NCBI GenBank assembly: GCA_003344405.1
Contig: NOWV01000170.1
Location: 62,001 to 126,000, forward strand
Length of the DNA: 64,000 nucleotides
Direction of reading: 5' to 3'
Origin: Trichoplax sp. H2
Taxonomy: Eukaryota
This document shows positions 4,441 through 60,818 of the stretch, one piece after another. The notes beneath the pieces were generated by a model. It was not told the DNA's origin. It worked only from the letters and a program-made list of their open reading frames with translations, and ran no database searches. How positions within the stretch are numbered: position 1 is the stretch's first letter; each line of letters begins with the position of its first letter. A program made the translations under genes and the position numbers.

Positions 4441-5922
4441 ATTTCGACCAATAGGGCCAATAGCAATTTATCAATGAATGAGTTCATGAATTATTAATCA
4501 AGTTATGGTCAATGAGTCTACCATTTCTTAAGCCTTACTGCAGCCAATGCAAGGACAAGTGAAATCAGTGATAGTACAAGAGAGTTTTCTTTTCATGCCC
4601 AGTGGATTCATTTGAATGGTAAGCACGCGAGCAATAGTCTTAACATCTTCTTCACCTTGGCTGGTATACTATTCAACAAGACAACACTTGATTGTAGTCT
4701 AATTTTTCTTTCATTTTGGCACTGCTTCGACCAAGTGTTCATTTTCCATTGCTAATGAATTGACAACACAAAATCTTCTCCATCGTCATCACAAACCCAT
4801 ACATTTTGATTTCTAAGCCACATTTTCGCAGTCTACGACAACACCAACGACGAGCAAAATCAAAGTAGAAAATTGTTTGCCGTTGGGACTTATCCACAAC
4901 CACATTTTTTCGCCATTCCAATCCAATCATCAGGATACAACGTCCAACAGCTCAATAAATTGATAGTATGGAAAGTTCTCCATTCTAGCAGCTGGAACTT
5001 GCTATCTTTCAAATAGAATAGAATACCCCCAAGGCGTGACAAAATACTATTTATTCGGCACAAGAGGATACCAAATAAAAGTTCCCACGTACGAAAGGCT
5101 CATCCATTACACGGAATTTGTTTTTCAACCGACAACCTTTTCTAAACGCTAAAATTTTATCGACGACTTCTGAAATTTCTGCAGTCTTGTAGAAATTGAA
5201 TTCAATTCACTTCAAACCGATCCATCATTTTTCATACAGGAACTTGTATTCTTATCATCTCCTTGTCAACAAGTTGAATTAATATCGGCAACAGCTTAAT
5301 TACCATCTACATTAATATAGTAGATATTATCCAATACTAATTACGCTTATCGTCCATTTTAAAAAAAATTCATCTCAGTTCCTTTCAACTGAAGTAGTTT
5401 ACAATCCGATCGACATTGAAATCTTCGTATAGACTAGCTGCATGTCCAAAACATTGAAGGTAACCTCCATGACGATTTGAATAGAAAAATTTTTTAAATA
5501 TCAACAGGAAATGAATCATTCACGATTACAGTAGAGACAAAACTCATTTTTATCATTCCTTGGTGGTCATTTCTGTACCAGCTTTTCACTAGTCACATTC
5601 ATTCAAAGAAACAGGAAATCAAGCAATAACGAACCAGTGCAGTCATATCTTTCATTTGTGATCAAAAAGACGTCAGGACTCTAAAGTTAAGGTACCATCA
5701 AATCAACACGACCTCATTGAATTAATAATTCATAATTTTAATGTCCTATAGGACTAACAATACTGCATAGACAGGATTATAATTCCGCATAAAATATCGT
5801 TTCAGTTGCGTGCTTGTTAAAAGGTGAATCACGAATTCAGAACGTTATAAATTTCACCAAGTTCTCACAATCAATTTCATCAACAACTGCAAACAAGGCC
5901 ATTCAGAAATAAAGTTATCATC

Positions 5923-16990: not shown

Positions 16991-19228
16991 TCAGTAATAG
17001 ACGATGATATCATCCATTTCTGCAAGTCGCCCATAGATCCCATCTAAACCTACATATAAAGTATTGAATATATTAGAATGACCGGTAGTGATATCTTTAT
17101 AACATAGTTTACTATCTTTTGTCCATGTTGGAGCTCCTGTTACTCTGTATAATAAGCATAGTCTACCAAATTTGGAATATGTCCAGTCGATAAGCAAGCG
17201 AAAGTCATACCATTGACCAGGGCTTAAATAATCTCCATAGAATGTAGATCCAGGACCAGTTACAACACGAGATTGAAAATGAGCATTAGGGCAGTCATAT
17301 GGACATTTTACATAACCAAATCCCAAGGTTTGGTTACGAACTACAGAATTGTAAATGAGCAAAACAGGTCCAGCATTATTGCCAGAGCCTGATGTAATTT
17401 TTCCAGTGAATTGAAGGTATGAATCGTTTCGCGAATAATCAAAAGTAAAGTTATATTCCCTCGTTACTCGTTGGCTCCAAACACAGCTAGAACCACTTGC
17501 ATACTTTCCCCTATTAGGATCTATTGCTACAACAGGGCCACAGTTTGCATCATGGCTAGCACCCTTCCAAGGTCCTTGACCTCTTAAGCGACCAACTGTA
17601 TAATTCTCAAAATTATCTATTAATATAGGCTTCCTGATTTTAGGTATAGTTATTGGTGTATTTGTTGATGAAATTGTCTCATCAAGAATTAACCATGTAT
17701 ATTCTAATGGCTTCTCACAGTGACCGATGCTTTCACTATCATATACTATAAAGATCGTATGAATTCCACCTCTTAAAAATGTTAATGTAATATTTCTTGT
17801 GTAACTATACTCCGATAAGTTACCGTTATCTAGCAAGTAAGCGTAACGTAATTCGCTATCAGCACTCATAACAAATTCGGATATAGTCTCATTTGTTATT
17901 TTATTCGGCTTTTTCAATAACTTTACTCTTGGCGATTTTCTCTTTATGGTAGAATTTTCTTTAGTAAATGAAGTCAGCCTGTTATATAGCACGTTCTTCA
18001 TAGAGTAAATTGTAGTACGCATTTGATATGTTGTAGATGGCATAATAGGTGATATGTCTTCCAGAATCTTAGGTTCATAAGAACCTTGATTAATCGGCAA
18101 ACCATACGACGATAACCATTTATTATCGTTAGAATAAATTTGTACGATACTGACCAACGGATTACCTTGACGTATAGAAAATTGTAAGCCGGCATTTCCT
18201 CTAACATCGTTTAAAATAGGTGAAATAATTTCACCTTTACCGTAGTTGACGAGATCGCCGATTAACCATCGTGTAATAACGAGCGCTGTATATGTAGAGG
18301 TCGTTATAGATTCTTCGTATCCGTAACGATGTGTTAAATCTTTAGGGAAATCGATATGTAGATAATGAGCAGCATGAAGTATTCCGTTGAAAACAGCGCC
18401 GTCTAATATTACATCGGCAGTATCTATAATACCATCTCCACTAGCATCGACTAAAGAAGTTTTCCACGGATTGAAATCACCTCTTATCGTCGCATACGAG
18501 ATATTATAGTTAGTAGTGAATTGATACCAATCTTTGTTTAACCAGTAAGTATACGAATTTCCTTCAAAATACTCACTCTTAGCCATTTCAATATATTCTC
18601 CGTATTGTTGCCAATTGTATTGAGGATTATTAATCTTTTCTATTTGTATGTGAGCATTTTCGCTTATACCTAAATTAGGTGTTCCTACTAATAATAGTTT
18701 TCGGATAGTATTCTTACCGTCACCCCATCGCATATAAGCTCTGGCGATTAATCCGCCCATACCATGAGCTACGATATCGACTTTATCAGTACCGATAGCT
18801 CGTAATATATTGATAATAGTAATCGATAATCTATCAGCATAAGAATACATTCTAGAAGTAGAACATCTCATAGAATCTGCAACGCCGCAATAGTAAGGTA
18901 CACTACCACATTGGTGAGGTATTAATCCGATATTAGAATGTTGTATGAAATATTGATAAGGATTTTCTCGATAGAATCCGAATTGGAATATTGTACGAGG
19001 AGATAGCGAGTTATTTTGTAAATCGTTAGATGTTTGCGACCATATTTTACCAAAGTCGTAATAATCGACTTGTGTTAAATAACGTTGAATAAGGTAGTCC
19101 CATGTATTTTCAACGTTTAAATTTCCACTGTGGCCATGAATAAAAATTATCGGATAGAATTGAGTTTGTTGGCAAGTTGCAAATGTCAACATGTGTACTA
19201 AGATAATGATGTTGAAAATGTTTGCCAT
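16991..19228 (-). CDS. Single-coding-exon 745-aa secreted protein: alpha/beta-hydrolase (EstA/PGAP1-like lipase fold), Ig-like/Y_Y_Y-like module and C-terminal beta-sandwich
   Basis: Uninterrupted ORF with a signal peptide (MANIFNIIILVHMLTFATC). Lipase-fold motifs: PIIFIHG (oxyanion), VDIVAHGMGGLIAR (nucleophile elbow), LLVGTPNLG, GDGII and a later His. Confidence 0.85.
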   Translation of the reverse strand: MANIFNIIILVHMLTFATCQQTQFYPIIFIHGHSGNLNVENTWDYLIQRYLTQVDYYDFGKIWSQTSNDLQNNSLSPRTIFQFGFYRENPYQYFIQHSNIGLIPHQCGSVPYYCGVADSMRCSTSRMYSYADRLSITIINILRAIGTDKVDIVAHGMGGLIARAYMRWGDGKNTIRKLLLVGTPNLGISENAHIQIEKINNPQYNWQQYGEYIEMAKSEYFEGNSYTYWLNKDWYQFTTNYNISYATIRGDFNPWKTSLVDASGDGIIDTADVILDGAVFNGILHAAHYLHIDFPKDLTHRYGYEESITTSTYTALVITRWLIGDLVNYGKGEIISPILNDVRGNAGLQFSIRQGNPLVSIVQIYSNDNKWLSSYGLPINQGSYEPKILEDISPIMPSTTYQMRTTIYSMKNVLYNRLTSFTKENSTIKRKSPRVKLLKKPNKITNETISEFVMSADSELRYAYLLDNGNLSEYSYTRNITLTFLRGGIHTIFIVYDSESIGHCEKPLEYTWLILDETISSTNTPITIPKIRKPILIDNFENYTVGRLRGQGPWKGASHDANCGPVVAIDPNRGKYASGSSCVWSQRVTREYNFTFDYSRNDSYLQFTGKITSGSGNNAGPVLLIYNSVVRNQTLGFGYVKCPYDCPNAHFQSRVVTGPGSTFYGDYLSPGQWYDFRLLIDWTYSKFGRLCLLYRVTGAPTWTKDSKLCYKDITTGHSNIFNTLYVGLDGIYGRLAEMDDIIVYY

Positions 19229-21929
19229 GATGGAGATTGGGTCAGAAATAACAACCTATTAATTAATTAAACGACAAAATTAGAATTATCTACGTAAATA
19301 AAGTTATCTGTGTCTGTTATAAGAGTAAATGATGTTAATGGAATACCAGTAATGTCTGTATCCAATTAAGCTATGTACCACTATCTTGATTTGACACAGT
19401 AACCAAACAGGAGAGTGATGAAAGAAATTTGATTACTTGAAAAAATGCGGATGTATGAGACGCTGAAATAACGAAAAAATACATTACAAATAAAAAGACG
19501 TATACGAGACGCACAGTGCTTTTTGTGCCTATTTTACCATTCTATATAGTAATATTTATAGTAACAGATATGTTAAAAAGACAAGAATAAAACACTCTTT
19601 TGCAAACTACATACTCAAAAACAACGTAAAGATTGCCATTTTTTCTTATAATTGTAAATTTAAATCAAAAAAGTGGATACTACCTTAAGATGGGCCTTGA
19701 AGCTGTTTGGCTTGATAATTGATAAGTGCAATTATAAGTTTCGGAACAAATTTATTGCCTAAGGAAATTGCTAAGCAACAACTGCTTACGTATCTGAATT
19801 TGGTAGTATAATAGATTGATACAATGCTTAATTTAGGCACCTTAATAAGTGGTCTAGGTACTTTATAATGACATTAATTTTACAAGTGAAATACGCTACT
19901 GGTGATGGTAATGACATTGAAAAGCTATAGTTTTTCTACTACCGTTAAAGCACTATTTAAATCTAGTGTTCGATTATCACTATATAATATTGCGAATAAG
20001 AATGCGGTAGTATTGATAATATTTTAGCTTAATGGTTACAGTATACTATCAAAGGCAACAAGTTATAAATACTAAGTCATTATCCGTAGTTAACATTTAA
20101 TTGCAAACTCTACCTGCGCAGCCAATAATTATAAAATTAGTGATTCTAAATGTCGTAATATAAAATGTAGTCGACTAAATGTAGAATACAGTCCAGTATA
20201 TTGCAAATCACTAGCAAAAATAACGTCAGCAATACCTGCCTACAGTTCTGTCTACATCCGGAAGTGAGTCACTTCTATCGAAACTAACTATCACTTTTGT
20301 TGTTATATATTCACATGTACAATTGTACATATACAATACAATGTGTAAATTTAAATTGCTTTCAGTATCCCCTGCTAGGATAGCATCAATCGTAATTGAT
20401 TGCAGTATACAATGAAGGATAGAATAGATTTATATGATGTCAGATTAATTGTTACTGCTAGCAGTATATCTCCATATCGTATTTTGCGCTTGGCGTAGTA
20501 TTTAATAATTAAGTATAAGGTTCAAAATGACTTTATTTTAGCCTGTTGTTATTAATCTCGTCCTCTTGTTGATTAGAGTATTGACCGTTTTATTTCACTT
20601 ATTCTGCATGTAATCGATGATTCCAAATCTCCATTTCTAAGCATGGGCTGTCAATCATTGCATTAAAATGATTTTACGATAACCGATCTATTATCTCTGA
20701 ATAAATCCGATCCTCCGATCCCCTCCCTATTTAACGAGGTGATCTATTGGAGTAGTTAAAATAAAGTAGAACGAGAATAGTGTGTGCAAACTTACCCTTG
20801 TACCTAACAGCACTAACAAACGAGATAGATAGATACTAAGAATTACTTTTACAATGTAAAAAGCACAGCAAAAGAGAACTATTTATAAAGGCTTCTTTAT
20901 TAGCGTATTTCTATGATGCAATCAAATTAGAATGTACGAGCATTCCATAGTTCAATATAGATCATATAGTACATATATGGAATTATGCTTTAATGCAGTA
21001 GAAATTAACTTACACCAAGAAAAGACTATACTGTATATAGTAATGTAGACAATAGTTTATTTTCTTTCTTGAAACTTCCATGGAAATTTTGATCGACGCC
21101 ACGGATCTCTCTTGCTGTTCAGTATATTTGACATATTGTATGAGAACTAATTCATCCGCGGATGCGGGAAATTCTCGAGGTATTCCGACTAATGTACTAA
21201 TTAGGCTACTTCTGCACAAATAATCAATCCCTGACCGATATCTGTTAGTCCTAGGTTACTCTTTATTTGAGACTTAGTAATGATCCAAAACGACGTTGAA
21301 TATTATTTGACCTTACGGTCTAACTGAGACAATCTCGATCACGGTGGATCTCACTACTGAACGTAACTAAATCAAACAGGGCACGCGATGGCGCTTAGAC
21401 TTCTCAAACAATTATAATTACTTATGATTGCCGATAACCGGCAACTACTAACTGCAACCCTGATGAGTTGATTGACTAGAATGGAATATATAGAAATGTA
21501 AACTACGGTTTATTTTATATCTTTAAACTTTCATGAAGATTTTATCTACGCCAACTCTCCTTTAGAACGAACAAATTTCTTTTAACCCTTTCATTATGCT
21601 CGTATTATATAATTATAGTTCGAGATCTTATCCCAATGGCGACTGACTACCGATGATTAACTGCTACCAGAACGTTCTGAATAACTTCTTCTACAATGTA
21701 TTAGCTATAGTTTCTAGACTCTGGCTGAGAAATAAGATGCAACAGTATCTGTATCTGCTTGTGAAGAACGCTCGAGATAGTCAATGTAGTCACATCATCA
21801 GTTGCAAATAGCTTGTTCATATTGGTGAAATGCCAGAGATTTACACTAGTTTCGGTTATTGGAATAGTTACAGTTTAGACATGTCGACTGGCGCATAGAA
21901 ATAAAATAGCTATCTGTATTCCTTAAGGG

Positions 21930-46928: not shown

Positions 46929-49900
46929 CTACTGAATAAATTGCCATTTTTGCTCAGGATCGTCATTACATATCTTCATTGTTATCATCATGTCATTAGT
47001 GTTTAATGCCAAACACAGCCCTCGGGAGATATTATATATTCGCTTTTTCTATCAGATAAATAGAATTACCATTAAACTTAGAAAATATTCGTACTTAAAT
47101 TTCAAGCACAGTATAACTTACACGACCATATGCAGAAGATATATAATATTCTGTACCTTATCATAAATCCATTCTTGTGAACTTAGATTTCCACATTTCT
47201 TAAGTAAGGGGACAATCGTACCACCAAAATGTGCTATGTCAGCACAGTACTTATGTAGCATGAGCATTCTCGTATTTAAATACATCCACTTCTAAAGTAT
47301 TAAGCAGATATGAAAATTATTAATGATGCTGCTGTGTATTAGATAGATTGAAATAAATTAATTAAGTAGTGTTGCTGACTTTGTTACGTAGATAGTATGT
47401 AGAACAGTTCAAAGAAAAATTTTGCTTTATTTGGTATAATTTATTACAGTCGAATAGCATTTATAAAACTAAAAATACAATTGCATTCATAATATTCTGG
47501 ATATCAAGGTATTACGAGGAAAACGTTCAGATACCACCCATTTCAATTGTAGTTGTATTTATAGCCTTGTACTTACTGCTTTTTCAATCTTCTTACATTG
47601 TCGAGCAAGCATTTTCTCTCCTTTGCGAAAGTTTTTAACTTTATTTGGTGCACTTAAGCAATATAAACTATTTCCAGCATTTCTTATCTAAGCAAAAAAG
47701 TCATAATGACAAATAATTAATACCGAAATACTTTCTAAGTCGTGAGATTTTTTATGCGATATAATTAACTTGTCCAGTTTATAAATAGGACTACTAATTT
47801 CAACATTATACAGAAAAAATAGTTCTACTAACTTTGCCTTGCATTAAAGACTTTGTTTCAGGTGTTTTTAAGTTGTTAGTTACAAAAGAAATTCCTGATT
47901 TTTGTTGACGGATTTGTTCTGAGTCAGTTGGAAGGACAAGTTCTGGGTAAACCTCCTGTAAATACCAACGAAAGGGTTTGCAGTGGAGCGACTGTCTTAA
48001 TTTCGTCCGATTACTGATATCTCCGTATAGCTTTCTATCACGCAAGTCAGGTCTTAGATTATAATAGAGTTCCTTGTAATCATCCATCCATACTTCAGCA
48101 ACACGTTGAGAGTTTATTTCCATGCTAAATTTCTTATTAGCTGTGCCATACGGTCTCCTTGTGCGAAATATATGACCAACACGTGAACATGGAGCGATCT
48201 TTAATTGGCCTCCACATTGCCATATTCTAAAAGAAATTTCTAAATTTTCTCCTCCCCATATTTCCATTTGATCATCATACGCACCAATCTGAAAAAAATA
48301 TTGCTTACTCATAGCAAATAATCCACCAGCCATCGTAGGTGAACTAAAAATGGTACAAAATTAATAGATTCGCCATAAGAGCTTCATTTAAATTTAAATG
48401 TTAAAATTCTTCCAGTAAGCACGAAACGATTGAGAAAACAATGACTTAATTGGTTAACTAATTATCACATACCGAAATGGCTTTGTCGGACCGCTGTATA
48501 ATGATTGAGGTACAGGTGCCCATGCAAAATGAAGGCCCCAACTGAATCCCCCACGTACAATGGGTGACGCAGTATATCGAAAGGTATCAAAGTTAATAAT
48601 ATCGATGATGGGACAAATGGCTGTTTGAGGATTTAATTTAATCTCAGCTACTAAAGGCTCCAACCATCCAGCATTGACTTCACAATGTGAATCTAGGAAA
48701 ATAATAATTTCGCTATTTGCCATTTTTGCACCAGTTAATCGAGAGCGAATTAATCCTTCTCTTTTATTGTTGCGAACAACTTTGACAATACCACTCAATG
48801 ATGCTTTAACGATTGTCGCTACTTTACGATATAGATCTATCATGTATAACATGAATTAATTTGAAAAGAAAAAGTGTTAGAAAAAAGAAACTTAATTAGC
48901 AATTAAGAACTAATTTAATTACTGTAATCGACCCAAAATAATCCCTAGCCATCTTCTACGTTAAACATAAATTCATTTTAGTGGTCGTACAATACAATAT
49001 CTATCGTCGCCTTTAGTAATCATTTATTTTCTATACAAATTTGATTCTTACCATACATTCATATAAACTATCTTTGTACAGTAATGATCTTATTGTAAAC
49101 TAAAATTTGAGTTACAATAATAATTGTAAATCATGCAAATATTGCAGAGTGTTGATTTTCTATCCTTACCTATAGAACTATAATCATCAATCAGTATGAT
49201 TTCATGTACAAGATCTGTTGGCGATCGATCCAATACGCTATAAACAGTTCGAAATAAAGCTGAAAGAGCTTCTTCATGGAAACAAATAATAATACTGGCT
49301 GCTGGCAAATTGCTTTGGTTATAGAAAGTCCCTTCTAATCGACAGCTGTTGGATACGATAATAGATTATTAGCATAATCAGTATAGTGCAAGAACTCTGG
49401 CATAAACATACACGCATGAGTAATCTAACAGTAATGAAGTACTAGAATAAAGTATCATCAACAGTTATATCAAGTTTTAATTAAGTTATGAATGGAACTG
49501 CAGTACCTTGGATGCCTTGTATCTGGTATATCACGTAAAAAACCAATCCGTTGGCTAAGTAATTCATTAAAAGCGTGCTTTTGATAGCCTTTTTGATAAA
49601 ATTTCAGTTCAGAAGTAGTTCTAATCCTTCCCATCAGAGGTTGATCTTCAATTTTAGTTCTCTGCATAGAAATAAGATTGGCTTTTGTCCATCTGGCTAC
49701 AGTCTACGAATGAATGAAGATTCAGCATGCATTTAAATCATGTCAAATTTATTTTAATTTTATAACTACATATATAGTAAGCATTCTATTATTCGTGTAG
49801 TCCTTGTATTGCTAGAAACTGTTGATGTCATATCTGAGCAATCAACAGCTAATCTCTTTCGTTCGCATAATTACCAATTCTAGGGTTCAATATCGATTAA

Positions 49901-51889: not shown

Positions 51890-52515
51890 CCATACAACAG
51901 AATTCTGGCACTCTTTCAAGCCATCTGGAGCGACTCCAACCTTTCTCTTTTAGTATTTTCAATGTCATTGGCCTAGTTTATCCTATAATCACGATGGGAA
52001 TACTTTAGATACCACAGAGTGATATATAGCCAGTCAATTTTTGTACTCGTTTTACTATTAGCCATGCTAAGCCATCTGGAACGAACATGGTCTGTTGATG
52101 AAATGGCCCTAAGATAGCCGTCTACTCTATGCTATAACATACAGGATGCATAACATAGACGAGTTTAGAGCTGTCTAGCCTATCATTCTTGTACTCTTTC
52201 ACTCTCCATCATTTGGAAACGAGCATAGTCTGCTTGATGAAATGTTCTCTATGCTCTAGTACAATATATCCAGCAGTTTATATTGATACAGCGGATATTA
52301 CAGATTAGATATACGCAACTCCAGCAACTGATCCCATTATAATAATTATCGAATTCTTACGCTCTTTTTTTATTATTAGCCATCTGAAATAAGCACAAAT
52401 TGCCTTACAATGACTATGGAAATATTCAATATATACTCTGTACACACTATAGCGATACAACCAGTAATTTTTGCACTCTCTCAACTACTTTCAGTCACCT
52501 AGAACGGAAGTGATC
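51890..52515. repeat. Highly degenerate ~130-170 bp tandem array upstream of GALNT11
   Basis: The motif (t/g)cactct...agccatctgga(a/g)cga recurs, sometimes followed by ttgatgaaatg, at ~51908, 52045, 52190, 52360 and 52475. Confidence 0.55.
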
Positions 52516-53888
52516 TCTTTCTAAATCTCTATTTAAAATATTCCATCTACGATAGTTTCCAATGCGCTTACGTAGTGATATAACTTTAGTTGTACACCTA
52601 TTACTATTGTACTGTATAATGAATGAACTATATACTCTATGTTATACAAGATCAGCACTACCGAGGACTCTAAAACAGTTGAAAGATGTTCCAACGTGTT
52701 GCCTTAAATTTTGCAGAAATGTACATTAAATTTAGCTCAAATTCCACGCAGATAAAAATCAGTACAACCATGAGCAATTGGCTCTTGATGTTTTGATTCC
52801 TTTTCATTGCAGTTTTGAGTCATTTTATATCTTTAAAATTTCGAATACAAACTATCAGTCACTGACATACTGTATGCACACTCGGTCTAACCAATTTAAC
52901 AAGTCACATCGTGTTACTTGTCTTATTACACAACTCCTAAATGAAAAAGGTCTCTGATCTACAGTATTGAATGTCCAATAATGTTCTCTATACAAGTTAT
53001 ATGCAACAGTACTGAAACCTCAAATAAATTTCTGACGTAATCGACTACTTGCCACGTATGCAATCCTGCACTAATACTTTACCTTGCTAGTTATAACAAA
53101 CATACAAGTAGATTTCGCCCTTTGAGAACTATGATAGTAGCACCAGCTGCCCCAATGAACATCGAATGAAACTACTGTCAATCCTATAGTAATGCTTAAC
53201 TCCCCATCAGATATAAAAGGAAATACCTACGCAAAAAGAATTTGACTCAATTTGTGTGCCATATGCCTCACATAAAAAGGCAACTGAAAACTACGGGGAA
53301 AGGCTTATCTAAACCTTTTTCATGAAATTGAAGTACCTTAGAGTACTAGACCAGTGTACAGTCACAATTTCGATACAGCAATACAACTCAAAAAGGAAAT
53401 GTAAATCATCAGTCAATTCGGATCCAAAATAGCAAGTAAACCCTATTTGTAAAACTTGACGTGTACAGTATACACCAAGCAAATGAATGCGCTTGACCTA
53501 GAATTTTATATTATACAGATCTACAAAATACGATCCTCACATTAACACATTCGGCAATGGTTTAACTCTTTATTGAACAAAAAGTACAATCAGCGCCTAT
53601 ACGCGTTAAAAGACAATACAACTACAATCGTCATTCCTCAAATGGTTCTAAAATACTTACAATCAGCACCAGCATAAATTATCGACAAAGGAACCAAAAA
53701 TATCCAAAAATAACTAGTTCATTTCAGAAACGGACGAACACGCATCAGATTACATTAGTAACTAAGCGTACGACTTCTATCGGAAATACTACTTCCGTGA
53801 TCGCGGACGGTGTCACCAACATGAAGGAATCTTAGAATAAAGTTATGCTAGAATGTCACGAAAGGTGGAGATATTGTGGATTTGGAGA

Positions 53889-56800
53889 TTAATATCGTCC
53901 TATAAATGTAATAAATATGATTTAATCAATCTCGATTGAAGAAATAAACGCAAAAAGATACAGAATATAAATAATATAGTACTAACGCCTAGGTGATCTG
54001 GAATATGAACGCGAGCGGGATCTTCGGTACCTTCGCCTGTAAACGATAAATTAAGTTGTAGATTTTGCCGAGATTAGAAGCTAACCTTAACCCTCTCCAC
54101 TTATATCCAATTAAGTGTTATACAATACAAGCAATACTTACGTTGGTTTACCCATATATATGCCAGGTGTTGGATTATGAGGACGTTTTGTCATTGAGAA
54201 ATCAACTCGAATCCTGCGACCATCTAATTCATAACCATTGGTACTTTCTTTAGCCTACATGTATGTCATGACAATAAGCCATAGTACGATAACTGAAATT
54301 ATTCCCACGCACTAAGAAGCATAATTATATCCATAATTCATTGAGATCTATTGCTAACCTCATAAGCATCGCGCTCATCTTCAAAGTAAACGAATCCAAA
54401 CCCTCGTGAACGCCCAGTCTAATCATATTTATCAAACAATAAGTTCCAGGATAAGCAAAAATTAATGGATTCATTCAATTACCTGATGGTCATACACGAT
54501 TTGGATATTTTCGATATCTCCATATTTTTCAAACAAGTCACGAAGTTCTCTTTCAGTTGTATACAAACTCAATCCAAATACACCCAAAACTCGGCAAGGT
54601 GAAGGATTAAGCTGTTAAGAATAGATAAAGTGTTCATTATCAAAGTATAATATTGCGATCATTGCAAGAAAATATTCTACTTGAAAATACTTTGAAATAT
54701 GCACGTGATAATGTAATGACTTGACTTACCCTGCTACGTTTTTCTCTCCTATAATAAGGTGATCTAGAACGTGAATACCTCGATCGCCGCCTTGGCGAAC
54801 GAGATCTTGATCTTTCATATTTAACGCAAAGAATAAACATTTATAGCAAACTGACTAACATGATTCATCTAACAACTGCAAAATGTTATTGTTTCAACTG
54901 TATTCCTAAATAGCACTGCATGACATTAATTTATACTACTTATACACTGAACAATTTCATGATATAGTCGAAGCCTACTACAAAGTAAAAAGCGTAGAAT
55001 ACCTTCTGCGTCGAGGAGAACGAGATCTTGATCTACGTTTTCGCCTTGGAGAGTAGGAACGAGATCGAGACGGTGAACGTGAACGCGATGCTGATCGAGA
55101 ATAGGAACGGCGGCGCCTATAAGAACCTGATCTTGATCTCCTCTTCGATCTCGATGATGATCTCCGCCGGCGAGAACCCGAACGAGAGCGTGATGACACC
55201 TGAGAATGTGAATCTGACCGAGATCGGCGACGTTCATGATCAGAGTTTGATCTCGATCGCCTTTTACGATAAGAGTTTGATCTAGATCTTGATCTTCTTT
55301 TATTGTCAGGAGAAATAGACCTGGACCTTGATTTCTTGCCTCTATCGTCTAGAGAGTCGTAATCACGATCTCTATCCTTTATGGACGAATGGCGGTCTTC
55401 CGTTGAGAGCTAAAAGACAAATAGATCCATTATTTAGCAATACTATTATTATGATTACCTATTGAGTCATTTTCTATATAAACCCCTTGGAAATTGTCCA
55501 AATTCTCCTGTACCGTACATTACCCAGATATACGTATTCTGCACATGATGAATACAGTTTATTTTACTTACTATCGTTCACCTTCGATTGTAATTAAAGA
55601 TGAATTCGGGTTGGTATTGCTCGTTCAAGTACACATTTAAATGTAACATCACTACCGCTATATGCCTCTCTTCTTGTCTTACGTGATCCAAACATTACTT
55701 CTTAGTTGAATCATATTATTAAATATACTATTCTATATGCTACAGTACACTGACATTGCTGCGTTGGTATGTGATTAATATACTATCTTTCTATCATGGT
55801 GAAATAAACTGGCTAAGAATAGACTCCTTCACGTTACCTATAATACTTTTATTAAGTATACTTATTTGATGAAAATTATATTTTTTTTCACTTATCTGCT
55901 CTAATTGTACTTAATGCCAACTATATTAACATAGAAAACGTACTAACTACTGCATACACAAGACATCAGGCACTTAGCATAGAGTAGACTGCGTAGTACT
56001 TCTAGCACTAAGGCAAGAAAATGTCACTAATAACTGTAAAGGTATAACTAACGTAGGATTGGCCGTAGTTTCCTGTTGTTTACGTACTAATTAACTAACC
56101 GGAGACTACTTTTTTGCAATTACGTGAAAAGCATTCAAAAACAACAGCAATAGCATCGTTACAAAGGTTACGAAATACCTTAGCACTTCAAGTTCTCTAT
56201 GGTCAGAACTCGAACAAGGTGCATTGCACACTTACTAATAACAGTAAGTACTATCAAACAGCATTAACAACATGCACGTTATAAAACAATCTGACACGTT
56301 GGAAGTTCTTCCCAAAAATTAAAATCTCAATCTGCTGTACGGTTGCTTCATTCAACGCTATTGGAAATGAATAGAATAGCAATGCACGACTAACCCATAA
56401 CAAGGGCTACTGTATTTGATAATATAATATGTAATCCACTGAAGTAGAGAACAACGTTAATGTACTAAGGTCCAGGAATGACTGGAAAGTAGTGAACGCT
56501 GTTTAGTAACTGGTAAAATACTACCCAAACTAACTGATAACTAGAAGAGGATGTAAAGTAATCCTACTAACTTCCAAGTTATAAGATGTATGGAAATAGA
56601 TCATAGCATAACGTAATCAACTAAAGCCATCTTGTTGTTATTGCAAAGTGTAACTACATACAATTTCAATACAGCCTAGAAAAAAGTGTGGCACGCAATT
56701 TTTTACTTCATTTTGTCCGAGGCAAAATGACTTTTGGTATATATATATATATATACAAAATTGAGTCAATTGAAGGTAGACAACAGCATTCATTAAGATT

Positions 56801-58280
56801 TTCTCTTCATGATGGAGGTTGATATTTTCTAATTTCATGATTTTCGCGACTTCTTGGCCGAAACTAAGGTAACTTCAAACCAATCATTGAATGGTGTCTT
56901 CGCTTCCTTTCTACATATCTATCCTACTTCAAGTGCAACGACTTTGCTGCTTTTGAGATTTGCATAGGCAGTGTTCAAGCAAACTTTGCGTTAATGATGA
57001 AAGAATGCATCAACTTGTATATAGTAAAGTATCATCAATGCAAACGATTGTAGGCTATGCATGCTACTACTTGGTGAGAAATGTAGTAGAACCACCTGAT
57101 TTATGAACAATGCAAAATTATTATGGTTATTACAGTCACTAATAATACAAGCTAGAGTAGCTTGTACTACAGTATAGCATCAGAAAGTTGTTCAACCTCT
57201 TGCTGAAGAAGTATGACGTTGTTGAGTACGAAATCTTCTTCTTCCTACCGTAATGGTTCTATTTTTAATTTATGGTGCTTTTCTGTACTGTGGCTATGTC
57301 AGCTTGAATTTTTTCCTCTTTTGCAAGCTTGTCGATTTGATAGTGGAGTACTAATCAAAGGATTGGATTTTTAGTTCTTGAATTTTTTCCCCTTTTTTTC
57401 ATTCTACAAGTACATGAAAAGAAAAGCGCTTGCCCAGATATGTGTTAACGGTTTCGTTGATGTTCTTGTTAAGTACTTTATATTTTGGAGGGCTTGCTAG
57501 AGTAGACTGTTTTCTGAGGCATTTTCTCGTTGATAACCAACGATTCATTTTCCATGAAGATCAGGTAGATTAAAACTGCGCTACTGTAGCCATCTTCATA
57601 ATATGTTATCATCTTCGTACTTCTTCATTTTCTAGGCTAACTACAGTGATGTACTTTGCAAAGTTAACGTTAATAATATAGCAGGGAATGCAGGTAGTCG
57701 TGGACGTGTCAACAACCCCCAAAAAAATGTGGACATCAATATACTAGTTACATATTCATATTGAATCAATGTCCAACGTCTAGCAAAAATTGGTGTAGTC
57801 GATTAATTACAGTACTGGCAAGCGGACACCATGAAATCTTGCGATGATTTTTTGCTTTTTTTAATTACGTGTAATTTGACGTTTTGACGGTAGTGTTCTC
57901 AAGGATTAAAGCTTCTGTGTTGCTTCTGAAGTGTTGCCGTGGTGGAATTGAAAACTCTCTACCTATTCACTTGCCACTGTCATGATTGAAGGACGTTCAA
58001 CGACGTCCATAAACTCTTTTTTTCCTATTCTGCTTCTTTTCCAACGCGCACTGAAATACAATCTTCCTCGCTCATTTTCACTTGCTGCAGTACGCAAACC
58101 TACTCATGTATTGTACATACTATTCTATCCAGTACTACTGCCACTTTCAACAACTTTATCTGGCTACAAAGGTTTGAGCCAACTGGATAAAAGTGATTGG
58201 CAGATCCAAAAATCCAACACAGACAACAATTTATTCTACTTATCCTTCATTCTTACCTTAGCATCTGGGCTATCAGCCAT
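53889..58280 (-). CDS. TRA2: Transformer-2 splicing factor (RS-RRM-RS); 8 coding exons
   Basis: Exon 1 MADSPDAK|gtaaga (58257-58280), an RS exon from 55409, then the [26 protein letters not shown]..|[12 protein letters not shown]..|..[29 protein letters not shown], ending [11 protein letters not shown]. Confidence 0.93.
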
Positions 58281-58549
58281 CGTAATGCTTCTACTTCAAA
58301 TAGTCAGCGGCGAGAACTATAAATCAACTTTTCCTTCCCAATCAGAGACACAACAAGAAAGTTGTAGGAAAAAAAAATGCGCGCTTAGATGCCTCCAACT
58401 CCTGAGCGACTGCAAAGAAAACGTGGGCTTTTGTACACTTTGTACCCGCTCAGGAGTGCTGCCACCCTACTGTACAGTACTAGGCCGAGGTGGCAAGTCC
58501 AGTCAGAGAATTTCCAATACCGGAGTCCGGTACGCTAGACCTCACGTCA

Positions 58550-58588
58550 CGTCACGTCACTGTACACTCAGTGTACAGTGACGTGACG
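58550..58588. promoter_or_regulatory. Perfect 18-bp inverted repeat built from GTCAC/TGACG (CRE/ATF-like half-site) units in the TRA2 upstream region
   Basis: cgtcacgtcactgtacac-tca-gtgtacagtgacgtgacg, about 270 bp upstream of the TRA2 ATG. Confidence 0.6.
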
Positions 58589-58895
58589 CGTCCAACGGGT
58601 TGACGCCGGTGGCACGCAATCTCTTTTGAGACGAGAGAGCGTCAGCCTACTCTGGGGAGATGAGCACAACCAATGTCATCGTTGTAATAGGATGATGAGT
58701 ACTACTCTTATTGTCATGCGTACAGGATGAGGTCATTGGAGTGACGAGTTATTTTGCGCACTGTACTACACTGCTTTTATAGCAAATGGCAGCCTCTCTC
58801 AATTTGTCAAGGGGTAGGAAGAAAGCTTTCCTTCTCTTTTACTCTACTATATATATATATAGATATATTATTAGTAGCCGAAGTTAGTGTGTTAG

Positions 58896-59258
58896 CCAAG
58901 CAAGAGATTTTCATTCCGGATAATCTTATAAAGCTCCAATCTTTTTTCCCCCACAAATAAGGATACTACATAACAACTAGACTAGAAGATCGCTCTTCTT
59001 CGACGAATCCATGACAGGATACATACTCATATTTATGTCGGTAGTACAGTAGTACAGTACGGTAATCCAAGCAAGAGATTCTCATTCCGGATAATCTTAT
59101 AAAGCTCTAATCTTTTTTTCCCCCACAAATAAGGATACTACATAACTCCTTTAGTAACCATCATAACAACTAGACTAGAAGATCGCTCTTCTTCGACGAA
59201 TCCATGACAGGATACATACTCATACTTATGTCGGTCGTACAATGGTACAGTACGGTAA
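58896..59258. repeat. Tandem duplication of a ~170-190 bp unit (2 copies)
   Basis: ccaagcaagagatt.tcattccggataatcttataaagctc occurs at 58896 and 59067. actagactagaagatcgctcttcttcgacgaatcc occurs at ~58976 and ~59169. Confidence 0.9.
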
Positions 59259-59960
59259 TAGAGCGTCAACAAATTCCATTCACTCAAAGACAACAACATC
59301 AAATCATTCATTAGTCCAAATAGGGATAATACAGGATTAATAGAAATCCACTGGGATGGACGTGATCCCCTAAATGGTATGCAAAGTAGTTCTTCTACCG
59401 ACATAGACAATTTAAAATTGGACGCTATAGTACACTCGAGAGGACAACATGTTTATTTTCTTTTCAGACGTAGATAAAGGGAAAAAATATGGCTGAAACT
59501 AGCGTAAAATTACTCTACTTTCGACCATGATGTAGCTCGAAAGAACAGTCGAAGCACATAGTAATCATTACTATGTACTATACTTTGCCGTCCAAAAGTT
59601 GAAAACGTAAATAAACACACCGTAGAGACCTCATTTAAGATTACTGTATTCAAAAATGTCATTCCGTATCCATGATACGATATCATGCAGTTCGGTCAGG
59701 GATGACAAAGAGTCGGGAACAAAAATTAAAATACGACTGAAAAGGATTTTTCATTTAATGAACAAAAATGTAAAGGCTGACTTTTTTCCTCTTCATTTTA
59801 CGATACTGAAAGACTGGAATAGTGCAATATACTGCAGCCAACTTAGTGCCCACTTTAATGTGCGAGCTTGTCAACAGTGTATAATGTGCGGCTACAGATG
59901 GACAATGCAGCTAAAATGGCCAGCAACAAGGTTTGGCACATGACATTTTTGTTAATGGAA

Positions 59961-60818
59961 AGTCCTCTCTCTTCTCATCCTGCTCCAGTACCGCAGTCTG
60001 TACCGTCTGTAGGTTTTACAATGGCTTACATATTGATCGACATATTGATACTGTACTGTATGAGTTAAAGTCCTCGTTCTGTCTCTCTCTCTTCTCTTCC
60101 TGCTCCAGTACCGCAGTCTGTACCGTCTGTAGGTTTTATAATGGCTACAATATTGATCGGCATATTGATGCTGTACTGTATGAGTTAAAGTCCTCGTTCT
60201 GTCTCTCTCTCTTCTCTGCCTGCTCCAGTACAGCAGTCTGTACCGTCTGTAAGTTAAAAGTCCTCTCTCTGTCTCTCTCTTTCTTCTCTTCCTGCTCCAG
60301 TACCGCAGTCTGTACCGTCTGTAGGTTTTACAATGGCTACCATATTGATCGACATACTGTATTGATGCTGTACTGTATGAGTTAAAGTCCTCACTCTATC
60401 TCTCCCCTCTTCCTGCTCCAGTACCGCAGTCTGTACCGTCTGTAGGTTTTATAATGGCTACCATATTGATCGGCATATTGATGCTGTACTGTATGAGTTA
60501 AAGTCCTCGTTCTGTCTCTCTCTCTTCTCTGCCTGCTCCAGTACAGCAGTCTGTACCGTCTGTAAGTTAAAAGTCCTCTCTCTGTCTCTCTCTTTCTTCT
60601 CTTCCTGCTCCAGTACCGCAGTCTGTACCATCTGTAGGTTTTACAATGGCTACCATATTGATCGACATATTGATGCTGTACTGTACTGTATGAGTTAAAG
60701 TCCTCACTCTGTCTCTCCCCTCTTCCTGCTCCAGTACCGCAGTCTGTACCGTCTGTAGGTTTTACAATGGCTACCGTACTGATCGACATATTGATGCTGT
60801 ACTGTACAGTATGAGTAA
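59961..60818. repeat. Higher-order tandem array of ~120-bp (A) and 70-bp (B) units: A-A-B-A-A-B-A-A
   Basis: The core cctgctccagtac(c/a)gcagtctgtacc.tctgta occurs 8 times. B units (60191-60260, 60504-60573) lack the 3' half. Confidence 0.95.

Follow-up and report, generated by a model that had tools for sequence, protein, structure and literature searches.

The first intron of the Trichoplax TRA2 gene gives rise to unproductive RNA forms that may take part in Tra2 self-control

Tra2 proteins regulate their own level in two ways: vertebrates use a poison exon, whereas flies retain an intron. Autoregulation reportedly featured already in the original work on Tra2-beta. Strong sequence conservation is a hallmark of the vertebrate TRA2 poison exons, and in flies the retained form limits Tra2 function through a shortened product. 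The vertebrate TRA2A and TRA2B poison exons are described as elements of an AS-NMD feedback, and the Tra2-beta motifs are given as AGAAGA, with GAAG as its core, and AGAA (PMC3240583, PMC11791180); the poison exon of Tra2a measures 306 nt (PMC3240583). The Drosophila tra2 pre-mRNA retains its M1 intron in a negative feedback (PMC3245930, PMC1669769), in which Tra2 bound inside the intron represses its removal, wherever it is bound, and in which the silencer spans 78 nt with five CAAGR repeats (PMC3245930). A similar logic is found in SR genes, where depending on the lineage the same intron is either retained or holds a poison cassette (SRSF5/srp2; PMC4379411). The latter study makes no mention of Tra2 and contains neither a TRA2 case nor a placozoan case, and our own evidence for Trichoplax is at the level of contigs.

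The TRA2 gene analysed here lies on the minus strand of a 64-kb stretch of DNA from Trichoplax sp. H2 (the window), and its exon joints were derived from RNA contigs (Table 1). The joined coding sequence comprises 291 codons and has the domain layout of TRA2, i.e. one RRM between N- and C-terminal RS domains: arginine and serine constitute 65% of residues 1-170 and 15 of the last 25 residues, and exon 4 matches the Pfam family RRM_1 (E 2.2e-8). A search of the PDB yielded only RRM entries of human TRA2B (2rra, 2rrb and 2kxn; E 4e-9), with 25 of the 26 aligned residues identical. Named matches include Nematostella transformer-2, which is 79-81% identical to the 43-aa exon (one of the searches scored 11 candidates only), and Bufo transformer-2 (58-60%). 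The RRM_1 match, the identity to the TRA2B RRM and the identity to Nematostella transformer-2 therefore identify the gene as TRA2. No isoform fragment was matched when the first 45 residues encoded by exon 2 served as query. The protein encoded next to TRA2 by a neighbouring gene shares 99% identity with one from Trichoplax, which places the lineage in the Placozoa.

The 5' end of the RNA is probably position 58399, as indicated by a loose adapter end on a contig, and the leader between this position and the start codon is devoid of any other ATG; on the 3' side the RNA contigs end at 53519 to 53560. Intron 1 is a genuine spliced intron: in a contig of RNA run X4, position 58257 is followed directly by 55409, and the 2847 nt left out have GT..AG ends (CT..AC on the plus strand). 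This contig has a depth of 750.1 and a short side of 30 letters. An earlier sequence-only reading had proposed an 8-codon exon 1 followed by a phase-0 intron of 2847 bp, and other TRA2 introns of about 60-190 bp. Both proposals are borne out by the RNA joints, which put the remaining six introns at 191, 118, 64, 104, 105 and 87 nt.

Table 1. Features of the TRA2 locus, with positions as counted in the window.
Feature	Positions	Strand	Description and basis
Exon 1	58257..58399	-	119-nt leader and 8 codons (MADSPDAK), ATG at 58280; X4 joint 55409->58257
Intron 1	55410..58256	-	2847 nt, GTAAGA...TTTTAG, phase 0; X4 joint
Exon 2	55003..55409	-	main RS1 exon, without Met codon; RNA joints
Exons 3-8 and 3' UTR	53519..54811	-	RNA joints, contig ends, RRM_1 match
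Exon 3	54730-54811	-	RNA joints
Exon 4, RRM	54483-54611	-	RNA joints, RRM_1 match
Exon 5	54359-54418	-	RNA joints
Exon 6	54142-54254	-	RNA joints
Exon 7	53987-54036	-	RNA joints
Exon 8	<=53899	-	RNA joints
First in-frame stop (TAG) if the exon 1 donor is unused	58236..58238	-	open frame of 14 codons
Internal alternative 5' splice site	56171..56181	-	aag/GTATTTCG, last retained base 56179; X10 joint
Sub-intron removed in the alternative form	55410..56178	-	769 nt; X10 joint
Intron sequence retained upstream of the internal donor	56179..58256	-	candidates for the 5' limit: exon 1, an unseen acceptor, an internal start
GAA/GAAG-densest part of intron 1	56657..58256	-	counts per 200 nt
Donor-like hexamer cluster	55947..56571	-	7 GT[AT]AGT (six GTTAGT), surrounding the used internal donor

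The RNA evidence consists of assembled contigs only, which come without strand, ends and rare forms. Runs X4 and X10 behave as RNA without carry-over of DNA because the flanks of the gene are silent: X4 has a depth of zero in both flanks (52300-52793 and 58475-59700), and X10 has a depth of zero in the former and of at most 1.67 in the latter. In run X1 the depth stays level at about 81 throughout. Contigs of X4 and X10 cover intron 1 in its entirety, at roughly one eighth to one quarter of the exon depth; the contig depths, which can not be used to rank gene parts, are 98.6, 36.5, 92.3 and 244.6 versus 399-750 for exon contigs in X4, and 57.4, 35.6, 82.9 and 122.5 versus 671.7 in X10. At the exon 1 donor, both runs contain an unspliced branch (contig 57878-58286, which includes 30 nt of exon 1), and in X4 it has a depth of 244.6 versus 750.1 for the spliced contig, i.e. 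about a quarter of the total. A further X10 contig (55382-56051) runs unspliced across the exon 2 acceptor, so that the donor is crossed in both runs and the acceptor in X10, by contigs in which mature and nascent RNA look the same. For intron 2 there is little or no unspliced signal in either run, as estimated from bin depths. The word shares of 14 RNA-labelled runs amount to 0.56-0.68, values that could be reached only if most of intron 1 were present, as genomic 31-mers wholly inside exons make up about 17% of the stretch by our own arithmetic; we gave these shares little weight because the share of run X9 (0.66; recorded as RNA) is not reproduced by its contigs, which number five, none of them on TRA2.

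Unspliced RNA of this kind would also be expected of an ordinary long first intron, in which nascent or incompletely processed pre-mRNA accumulates far more than in introns of 60-190 nt. First introns are commonly the longest, the depth of the intron contigs falls in the 5' to 3' direction (122, 83 and 57 in X10, the library types not being on record), and three of the runs recorded as RNA are random-primed libraries, for which unspliced RNA is expected. The size of the unspliced branch at the exon 1 donor (about a quarter in X4) argues against this explanation, as does the fact that genes for SR-type splicing factors are described as being under unproductive splicing across kingdoms (PMC4379411). 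Nevertheless, the ordinary intron is a strong rival, and it may quite possibly be correct.

Besides the unspliced RNA, an unproductive splice form of intron 1 exists. One contig of X10 joins 55409 to 56179, skipping 769 nt with GT..AG ends on the minus strand, at a depth of 144.7 (about 22% of the exon depth of 671.7) and with a side of 28. The internal donor, AAG/GTATTT at 56179/56178, resembles the constitutive donor of intron 2 (aag/GTATTCTA). It is surrounded by a cluster of donor-like hexamers, a post hoc observation: intron 1 has 8 GT[AT]AGT on the sense versus 1 on the antisense strand, whereas other segments of the same length have 1.4 on average and 6 at most, with none of the 546 reaching 8. 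For an ordinary intron, the joint would represent an error at a cryptic site or a transient intermediate; its occurrence in one of the two RNA runs, the X4 contig continuing straight through 56179, fits that explanation, but a joint depth of 144.7 versus 671.7 for the exon far exceeds the usual noise at cryptic sites, and the hexamers cluster around the very donor that is used. A recursive splice site (ratchet point) at 56179/56178 was considered and rejected because a pyrimidine tract is absent: AG/GT is present but the 20 nt upstream are purine-rich, and no joint from exon 1 to 56178 occurs among the RNA contigs.

The sequence retained in front of the internal donor may begin at exon 1, at an unseen acceptor or at an internal start. 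In X10 this stretch is covered by two contigs, 56179-57876 and 57878-58286, that continue from exon 1, and among the X4 and X10 contigs, which drop rare forms, there is no joint of exon 1 to an acceptor inside intron 1. The junction has a depth of 144.7, more than the average of 82.9 over the 1698-nt contig on its upstream side, and simple retention of the whole 5' part is therefore an insufficient explanation. A short, better-covered exon beside 56179 would fit this mismatch, and could be a cassette poison exon of the vertebrate type, i.e. one that extends from an unseen acceptor to 56179, contains stop codons and responds to Tra2 by being included. Plausible acceptors preceded by pyrimidine tracts are present at 56357, 56438 and 56540, 179-362 nt upstream, an in-frame TGA is present and three GAAG occur in the 200 nt before the donor. 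However, the contig that would connect exon 1 to such an acceptor is absent in X4 and X10, contig 56179-57876 of X10 spans every candidate acceptor without a break, the region adjoining the donor is not the GAA-richest part of the intron, and exon skipping is described as infrequent in non-bilaterians (PMC6142364). We consider a cassette exon of this type very unlikely.

The unspliced and the internal-donor forms are both non-coding with respect to Tra2 (RS1-RRM-RS2) because of their stop codons. The former runs into the TAG listed in Table 1; the latter meets an in-frame TGA four codons before the 56179/55409 joint, and no frame started by an ATG passes through this joint into RS1. The premature stops of the intron-1 forms have six or seven exon junctions downstream. 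In contrast to the fly with its shortened product, the next in-frame Met of the Trichoplax protein is residue 255 of 291.

A mismatch in depth together with an unbroken contig would likewise fit a separate transcription unit in intron 1, either with an internal start and a first exon ending at 56179, which provides more cover beside 56179 without an extra junction, or as an independent non-coding RNA in sense or antisense direction, the contigs carrying no strand information. Against such a unit stand the contiguity of the RNA contigs from exon 1 through the intron, including the 30 nt of exon 1 in the branch 57878-58286, the minus-strand GT..AG ends of the alternative joint, the lack of an ATG-started frame through that joint to RS1, and the absence of Rfam families, tRNAs and Pfam families from intron 1; all in all, it is quite improbable. 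No open frame inside the intron exceeds 78 aa, none of the 27 intron 1 open frames of at least 40 aa matches a Pfam family, and comparison of the intron with the rest of the window revealed no similarity beyond TA runs. No Rfam family reaches its gathering score anywhere in the window, a lax scan giving only a chance-level match to mir-4860 (E 0.89) upstream of the TRA2 gene. Neither a transposable element nor a nested gene, either of which could have explained the size of the intron, was thus found by these searches (ORF, Pfam, Rfam, tRNA and self-similarity within the window). On the opposite (plus) strand, an open frame of 209 aa at 57952-58581 was treated as a chance occurrence; it has no Pfam match and the RNA cover of X4 ends at 58399.

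As to motif content, the suggestion of GAA/AGAA-rich blocks on the sense strand proved correct for the enrichment and incorrect for the blocks. The sense strand of intron 1 contains 77 GAA (53.4 +/- 5.4 expected) and 28 GAAG (11.3 expected), numbers reached in none of 1000 dinucleotide shuffles, and 33 AGAA (20.5 expected; one of 1000 shuffles), versus 50, 9 and 14, respectively, on the antisense strand. Neither the GAA nor the GAAG count is reached by any of the 546 other 2847-nt segments taken from both strands of the 64 kb. Among the 256 4-mers GAAG is the most over-represented (28 vs 8.9, z 6.4), its reverse complement occurring 9 times, and among the 64 3-mers GAA takes second place. In size the excess is modest, GAA being 1.4-fold and GAAG about 3-fold above expectation. 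The GAAG density is 11.1 per kb in the 5' part versus 6.5 per kb in the 3' part, and longer Tra2-type motifs are few (AGAAGA 3, GAAGAA 4). The local maxima of 5 GAA per 40 nt and 8 per 100 nt are matched by random placement in 68% and 50% of 2000 trials and reached by 15% and 8% of the other segments; since these maxima are at the level of random placement, the excess is diffuse and does not form discrete blocks. Accordingly, no dense exon-sized GAA/AGAA cluster was found in intron 1 for any of nine combinations of motif and window size (p 0.13 to 0.93 versus random placement). CAAGR, the repeat of the fly silencer, is not enriched in intron 1 (CAAGA 7 vs 4.1 +/- 1.9, CAAGG 1 vs 1.8). In an ordinary first intron the GAAG excess would have no role in TRA2 dosage, and its diffuse distribution without exon-sized blocks is in keeping with that; the rank of GAAG as top 4-mer, its strand-specificity and the lack of an equal among the 546 control segments are not.

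Taken together, we tentatively favour, at a probability that falls somewhat short of even, a reading in which intron 1 is spliced and yet diverts part of the pre-mRNA into non-coding forms as part of a negative feedback by Tra2. Tra2 would bind the GAAG-rich sense RNA and steer splicing away from the exon 1 donor, with intron 1 as a whole removed more slowly or the internal donor preferred, such that a high level of Tra2 leads to less productive mRNA. The intron-retaining and internal-donor forms would either be broken down by NMD or stay in the nucleus, two fates to which intron retention has been linked (PMC6142364). Such a feedback would be of the general SR-protein type, combining retention of the intron with use of an alternative 5' splice site and lacking a short cassette poison exon, and exon skipping is indeed described as less used in non-bilaterian animals than in bilaterians (PMC6142364). 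Of the self-regulation through a poison-exon-like element that had been proposed for the locus, what remains is a non-productive intron-1 form, unspliced RNA in both runs and a GAAG excess; a cassette exon was not found among the contigs of X4 and X10, nor an exon-sized motif block in the intron. We infer that Tra2 autoregulation via intron 1 is plausible.

The locus shares with the vertebrate TRA2A and TRA2B systems the gene family, an intron situated after a very short first coding exon and before RS1, premature stops and a sense enrichment of GAA/AGAA. It differs in that an internal 5' splice site and an unspliced intron take the place of a cassette with two junctions, and in that the motif excess is diffuse and extends across about 1.6 kb, in contrast to the multiple binding sites that the vertebrate exon has within about 300 nt (PMC3240583). 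The positional equivalence with vertebrates rests on a short N-terminus that can not be aligned. The vertebrate exon 1 comprises 12 codons, a length partly supported by an exon starting at ESRS in metagenome locus L009 and by the N-terminus of Bufo TRA2A. Among 80 of the 111 confirmed metagenome TRA2 loci, identity in the RRM exon is at most 73%, and none is therefore a near relative. Two motif peaks at these loci were discarded: in L008/L007 the GAAG peak that precedes the TRA2-like gene consists of a 25-nt minisatellite, and the GAA peak in L021 lies upstream of the ATG and not in intron 1. In thirteen mRNA-like contigs the TRA2 frame is preceded by a leader of 459-1207 nt, in which GAA occurs at an unremarkable 13-36 per kb.

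At a higher level of generality, self-regulation of Tra2 via intron 1 could be older than the divergence of placozoans from bilaterians. In the ancestral state, Tra2 would then have bound a GAAG-rich part of intron 1, by which the exon 1 donor is held back and retention or internal donors are favoured, and the short, ultraconserved poison exon of vertebrate TRA2A and TRA2B would have arisen from it later, in condensed form and at the corresponding position in the gene. We regard this scenario as unlikely, if worth stating. A search of one collection of papers found none naming both Trichoplax and 'poison exon'. If the intron signal is nascent RNA, the finding reduces to an ordinary long first intron. 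Because placozoans branch outside the Bilateria, a verified Tra2-responsive unproductive form would date the feedback to early animals and, moreover, would show which of the two architectures, poison exon or intron retention, came first.

Intron 1 of the minus-strand TRA2 gene of Trichoplax sp. H2 is a real intron, RNA from it is present both unspliced and in a non-coding splice form, and its sense strand carries an excess of GAAG. The gene model is based on assembled contigs of four public sequencing runs (X1, X4, X9 and X10) which, placed on window positions 52300-59700, gave the TRA2 joints and the depth. Spliced joints are present in the RNA runs X4 and X10, and all of them read CT..AC on the plus strand, i.e. 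GT..AG on the minus strand. The joint of intron 1 is contained in a single X4 contig (depth 750.1) with 30 letters on the exon 1 side. Together with the ATG at 58280, this joint yields 8 codons in exon 1 and a phase-0 intron, which is the arrangement modelled earlier in the sequence-only reading. The RNA 5' end probably lies at 58399, where an adapter-tagged contig ends, and the resulting leader of 119 nt contains no ATG.

TRA2 introns and RNA contigs across intron 1 (contig depth cannot rank gene parts, and contigs reveal neither strand nor rare forms)
Feature	Position	Strand	X4	X10
Intron, 87 nt	53900-53986	minus	joint	joint
Intron, 105 nt	54037-54141	minus	joint	joint
Intron, 104 nt	54255-54358	minus	joint	joint
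Intron, 64 nt	54419-54482	minus	joint	joint
Intron, 118 nt	54612-54729	minus	joint	joint
Intron, 191 nt	54812-55002	minus	joint	none
Intron 1, 2847 nt	55410-58256	minus	joint	none
Intron 1 contig			55449-56051, depth 98.6	55382-56051, depth 57.4
Intron 1 contig			56022-56140, depth 36.5	56022-56140, depth 35.6
Intron 1 contig			56111-57853, depth 92.3	56179-57876, depth 82.9
Intron 1 contig			57878-58286, depth 244.6	57878-58286, depth 122.5
Exon contigs			depth 399-750	depth 671.7

The joined frame comprises 291 codons, and R and S make up 65% of residues 1-170. Exon 4 matches RRM_1 (E 2.2e-8), exon 6 is identical in 25 of 26 residues to human TRA2B RRM structures, its sole structure matches, and 7 matches were found among 11 scored candidates, the named ones being transformer-2 of Nematostella (79-81%) and Bufo. 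By sequence similarity, the gene is a TRA2 orthologue. That the window is placozoan follows from a GalNAc-transferase gene nearby, one exon of which (47806-48360) shares 99% identity with a Trichoplax sp. H2 protein (next best at most 69%). A side feature concerns 54748-54811 (minus strand) in exon 3: the main X10 mRNA contig keeps, adjoining exon 2, 18 letters only of this exon. This fits a putative alternative acceptor ttattatag/G at 54749/54748, derived from contig coordinates and not from a listed joint, which would shorten the frame by 63 nt without shifting it, with a loss of 21 RS1 residues (270 instead of 291 codons); the acceptor used in X4 is 54811.

A possible promoter element lies ~150-190 nt upstream of where the TRA2 RNA probably starts, at the highest GC content of the region: a perfect 19-nt inverted repeat (58542-58588), with arms at 58550-58568 and 58570-58588 and an overlapping TCACG x3.8 tandem. 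Cores of the ACGTCA type are similar to bZIP sites. Two direct copies of ~170-190 nt, 92-100% identical, occupy 58891-59260, and a tandem array with units of ~120 and 313 nt lies farther upstream (59965-60816). At 52829-52864 a 36-nt match in all four runs has long unrelated contig sequence on both sides and is either a short repeat common to several loci or a fragment of a transcript that originates at another locus. The window also holds long uninterrupted frames of 754 aa (16991-19255, minus) and 571 aa (3-1718, plus) in an otherwise short-exon genome.

A transposable element or nested gene as the cause of the long intron 1 is unsupported by the searches made. No open frame wholly inside it exceeds 78 aa, none of its 27 ORFs of at least 40 aa matches Pfam, neither Rfam families nor tRNAs were found, no sequence except TA runs is shared with the rest of the window, and its internal repeats are trivial. 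A transcription unit internal to the intron is an improbable explanation of the RNA cover over it. A plus-strand stop-free frame of 209 aa (57952-58581), antisense to exon 1 and the promoter, has no Pfam match, and X4 RNA cover ends at 58399; the frame lies where GC content is higher and has probably arisen by chance.

Intron 1 is covered by contigs along its full length in both X4 and X10. Run X1 is read as DNA because its depth is flat (~81 over all 30 bins) and it has no spliced joints, and 5 contigs of X9 matched within 52300-59700, none on the TRA2 gene. The flanks are near-silent in the RNA runs (52300-52793: zero in both; 58475-59700: zero in X4, at most 1.67 in X10), so that the cover of intron 1 does not represent DNA carry-over. 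The contig 57878-58286 starts 30 nt within exon 1 and thus marks an unspliced branch at the exon 1 donor, and X10 contig 55382-56051 spans the exon 2 acceptor unspliced. The cover falls from 5' to 3', as expected of nascent RNA, and an ordinary intron that carries nascent RNA plus splicing noise is a strong rival explanation of these data, only slightly less likely than the reading favoured here. The contigs of both runs break at 57845-57877 beside an A-rich run (AATTAAAAAAAGCAAAAAATC), with depth higher on its 5' side (X4 244.6 vs 92.3; X10 122.5 vs 82.9), possibly reflecting internal oligo-dT priming or an intronic poly(A) site. Two X4 contigs of the leader region 58215-58399 (two alleles; depths 1526 and 1786, sum 3311) have several-fold the depth of the contig that links exons 1 and 2 (750), and at 24-45 nt into the intron (~58233-58212) an AATAAA precedes a GT-rich run. 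Early termination of TRA2 RNA might be involved, but no poly(A) loose end is listed.

The non-coding splice form is seen in X10 as a joint from 56179 to 55409 (769 nt skipped, short side 28 letters), whose depth of 144.7 exceeds the mean of the adjoining upstream contig (82.9). Its donor, aag/GTATTTCG, is similar to the one that serves intron 2 constitutively, aag/GTATTCTA. X4 lacks the joint, one of its contigs continuing through 56179, a point in favour of noise. A true cassette exon is quite unlikely; among the X4 and X10 contigs, none links exon 1 with an acceptor inside the intron. When the exon 1 donor is unused, the ATG frame stops after 14 codons (58238-58236); a TGA also lies four codons ahead of the alternative joint, and exons 2 and 3 lack a Met, the next in frame being residue 255 of 291. 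Every form containing intron 1 sequence is therefore non-coding for Tra2, and the stops of these forms sit far upstream of later exon junctions. Donor-like GT[AT]AGT hexamers, noticed post hoc, number 8 on the sense and 1 on the antisense strand of intron 1 (546 other 2847-nt windows: mean 1.4, maximum 6, none as many as 8). Of the sense-strand hexamers, seven fall within 55947-56571, surrounding the used donor, and GTTAGT/GTTAGC is a real donor type in 2 of the 7 TRA2 introns.

Motif counts were compared with 1000 dinucleotide shuffles and with 546 other 2847-nt windows on both strands. The sense strand of intron 1 holds 77 GAA (shuffles 53.4 +/- 5.4), 28 GAAG (11.3 +/- 3.0) and 11 GAAGA (3.4), none reached in 1000 shuffles, and 33 AGAA (20.5; 1/1000 as high); AGAAGA (3) and AAGAA (11) show no significant excess over shuffles. 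The antisense strand has 50 GAA, 9 GAAG and 14 AGAA, and none of the 546 windows matches the intron's GAA or GAAG count, which bears out the proposed GAA enrichment. When k-mers are ranked without prior choice relative to the remainder of the window, GAAG comes first of 256 4-mers (z 6.4) and GAA second of 64 3-mers. GAAG density is 11.1 per kb in 58256-56179 vs 6.5 in 56178-55410. The local maxima equal those of randomly placed motifs, so that the GAA/AGAA-rich blocks described from the sequence hold as a strand-specific, diffuse excess but not as discrete blocks. A strand bias as strong as that of GAAG is shown by TAGTA (17 vs 6.3 expected; 4 for its reverse complement) and TTAGT (15 vs 4.6; 3 for its reverse complement), and the donor-like GTTAGT sites account for this bias in part only.

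The intron follows a first coding exon of very few codons and precedes RS1, which is the site of the vertebrate TRA2 poison exon, as had been proposed. Its architecture nevertheless differs, because the contigs show no two-junction cassette and the intron has no dense exon-sized motif cluster. Fly M1 retention is alike in principle, but its CAAGR repeats are not enriched in the placozoan intron. Among 80 metagenome TRA2 loci, kept out of 111 confirmed ones, RRM exon identity is at most 73% in all. A putative first exon of 6-7 codons followed by an intron of ~340 nt, modelled by eye in one of them (L021), suggests that the position of intron 1 is common to both genes and its length is not. The L021 motif peak was rejected as an intron 1 feature, being a stretch upstream of the ATG. 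The peak in L008, a metagenome contig with a TRA2-like gene, was likewise rejected as a Tra2-site cluster: it is a simple tandem repeat, an AAGAAGA-rich 25-nt minisatellite of ~9 copies (4500-4730; also L007 1-420), ~4.6 kb upstream of the RS1 exon. Within the literature collection searched, no paper names both Trichoplax and 'poison exon', and wider searches retrieved no placozoan or cnidarian TRA2 case.

A role for Tra2 itself leans on published work: Tra2-beta binds AGAAGA/AGAA (PMC3240583, PMC11791180); Tra2 bound in an intron represses splicing regardless of position within it (PMC3245930); unproductive splicing is general and flexible among SR genes, in a study that does not mention Tra2, with fungi retaining one SRSF5 intron at which animals have a cassette (PMC4379411); NMD and TRA2 were present in early animals (PMC5560861); and exon skipping is less frequent in non-bilaterians (PMC6142364). 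We tentatively favour, at somewhat less than an even chance, the reading that the unproductive intron 1 forms would reduce productive TRA2 mRNA in this placozoan, and that Tra2 would steer the splice choice by binding the GAAG-rich RNA of its own first intron.
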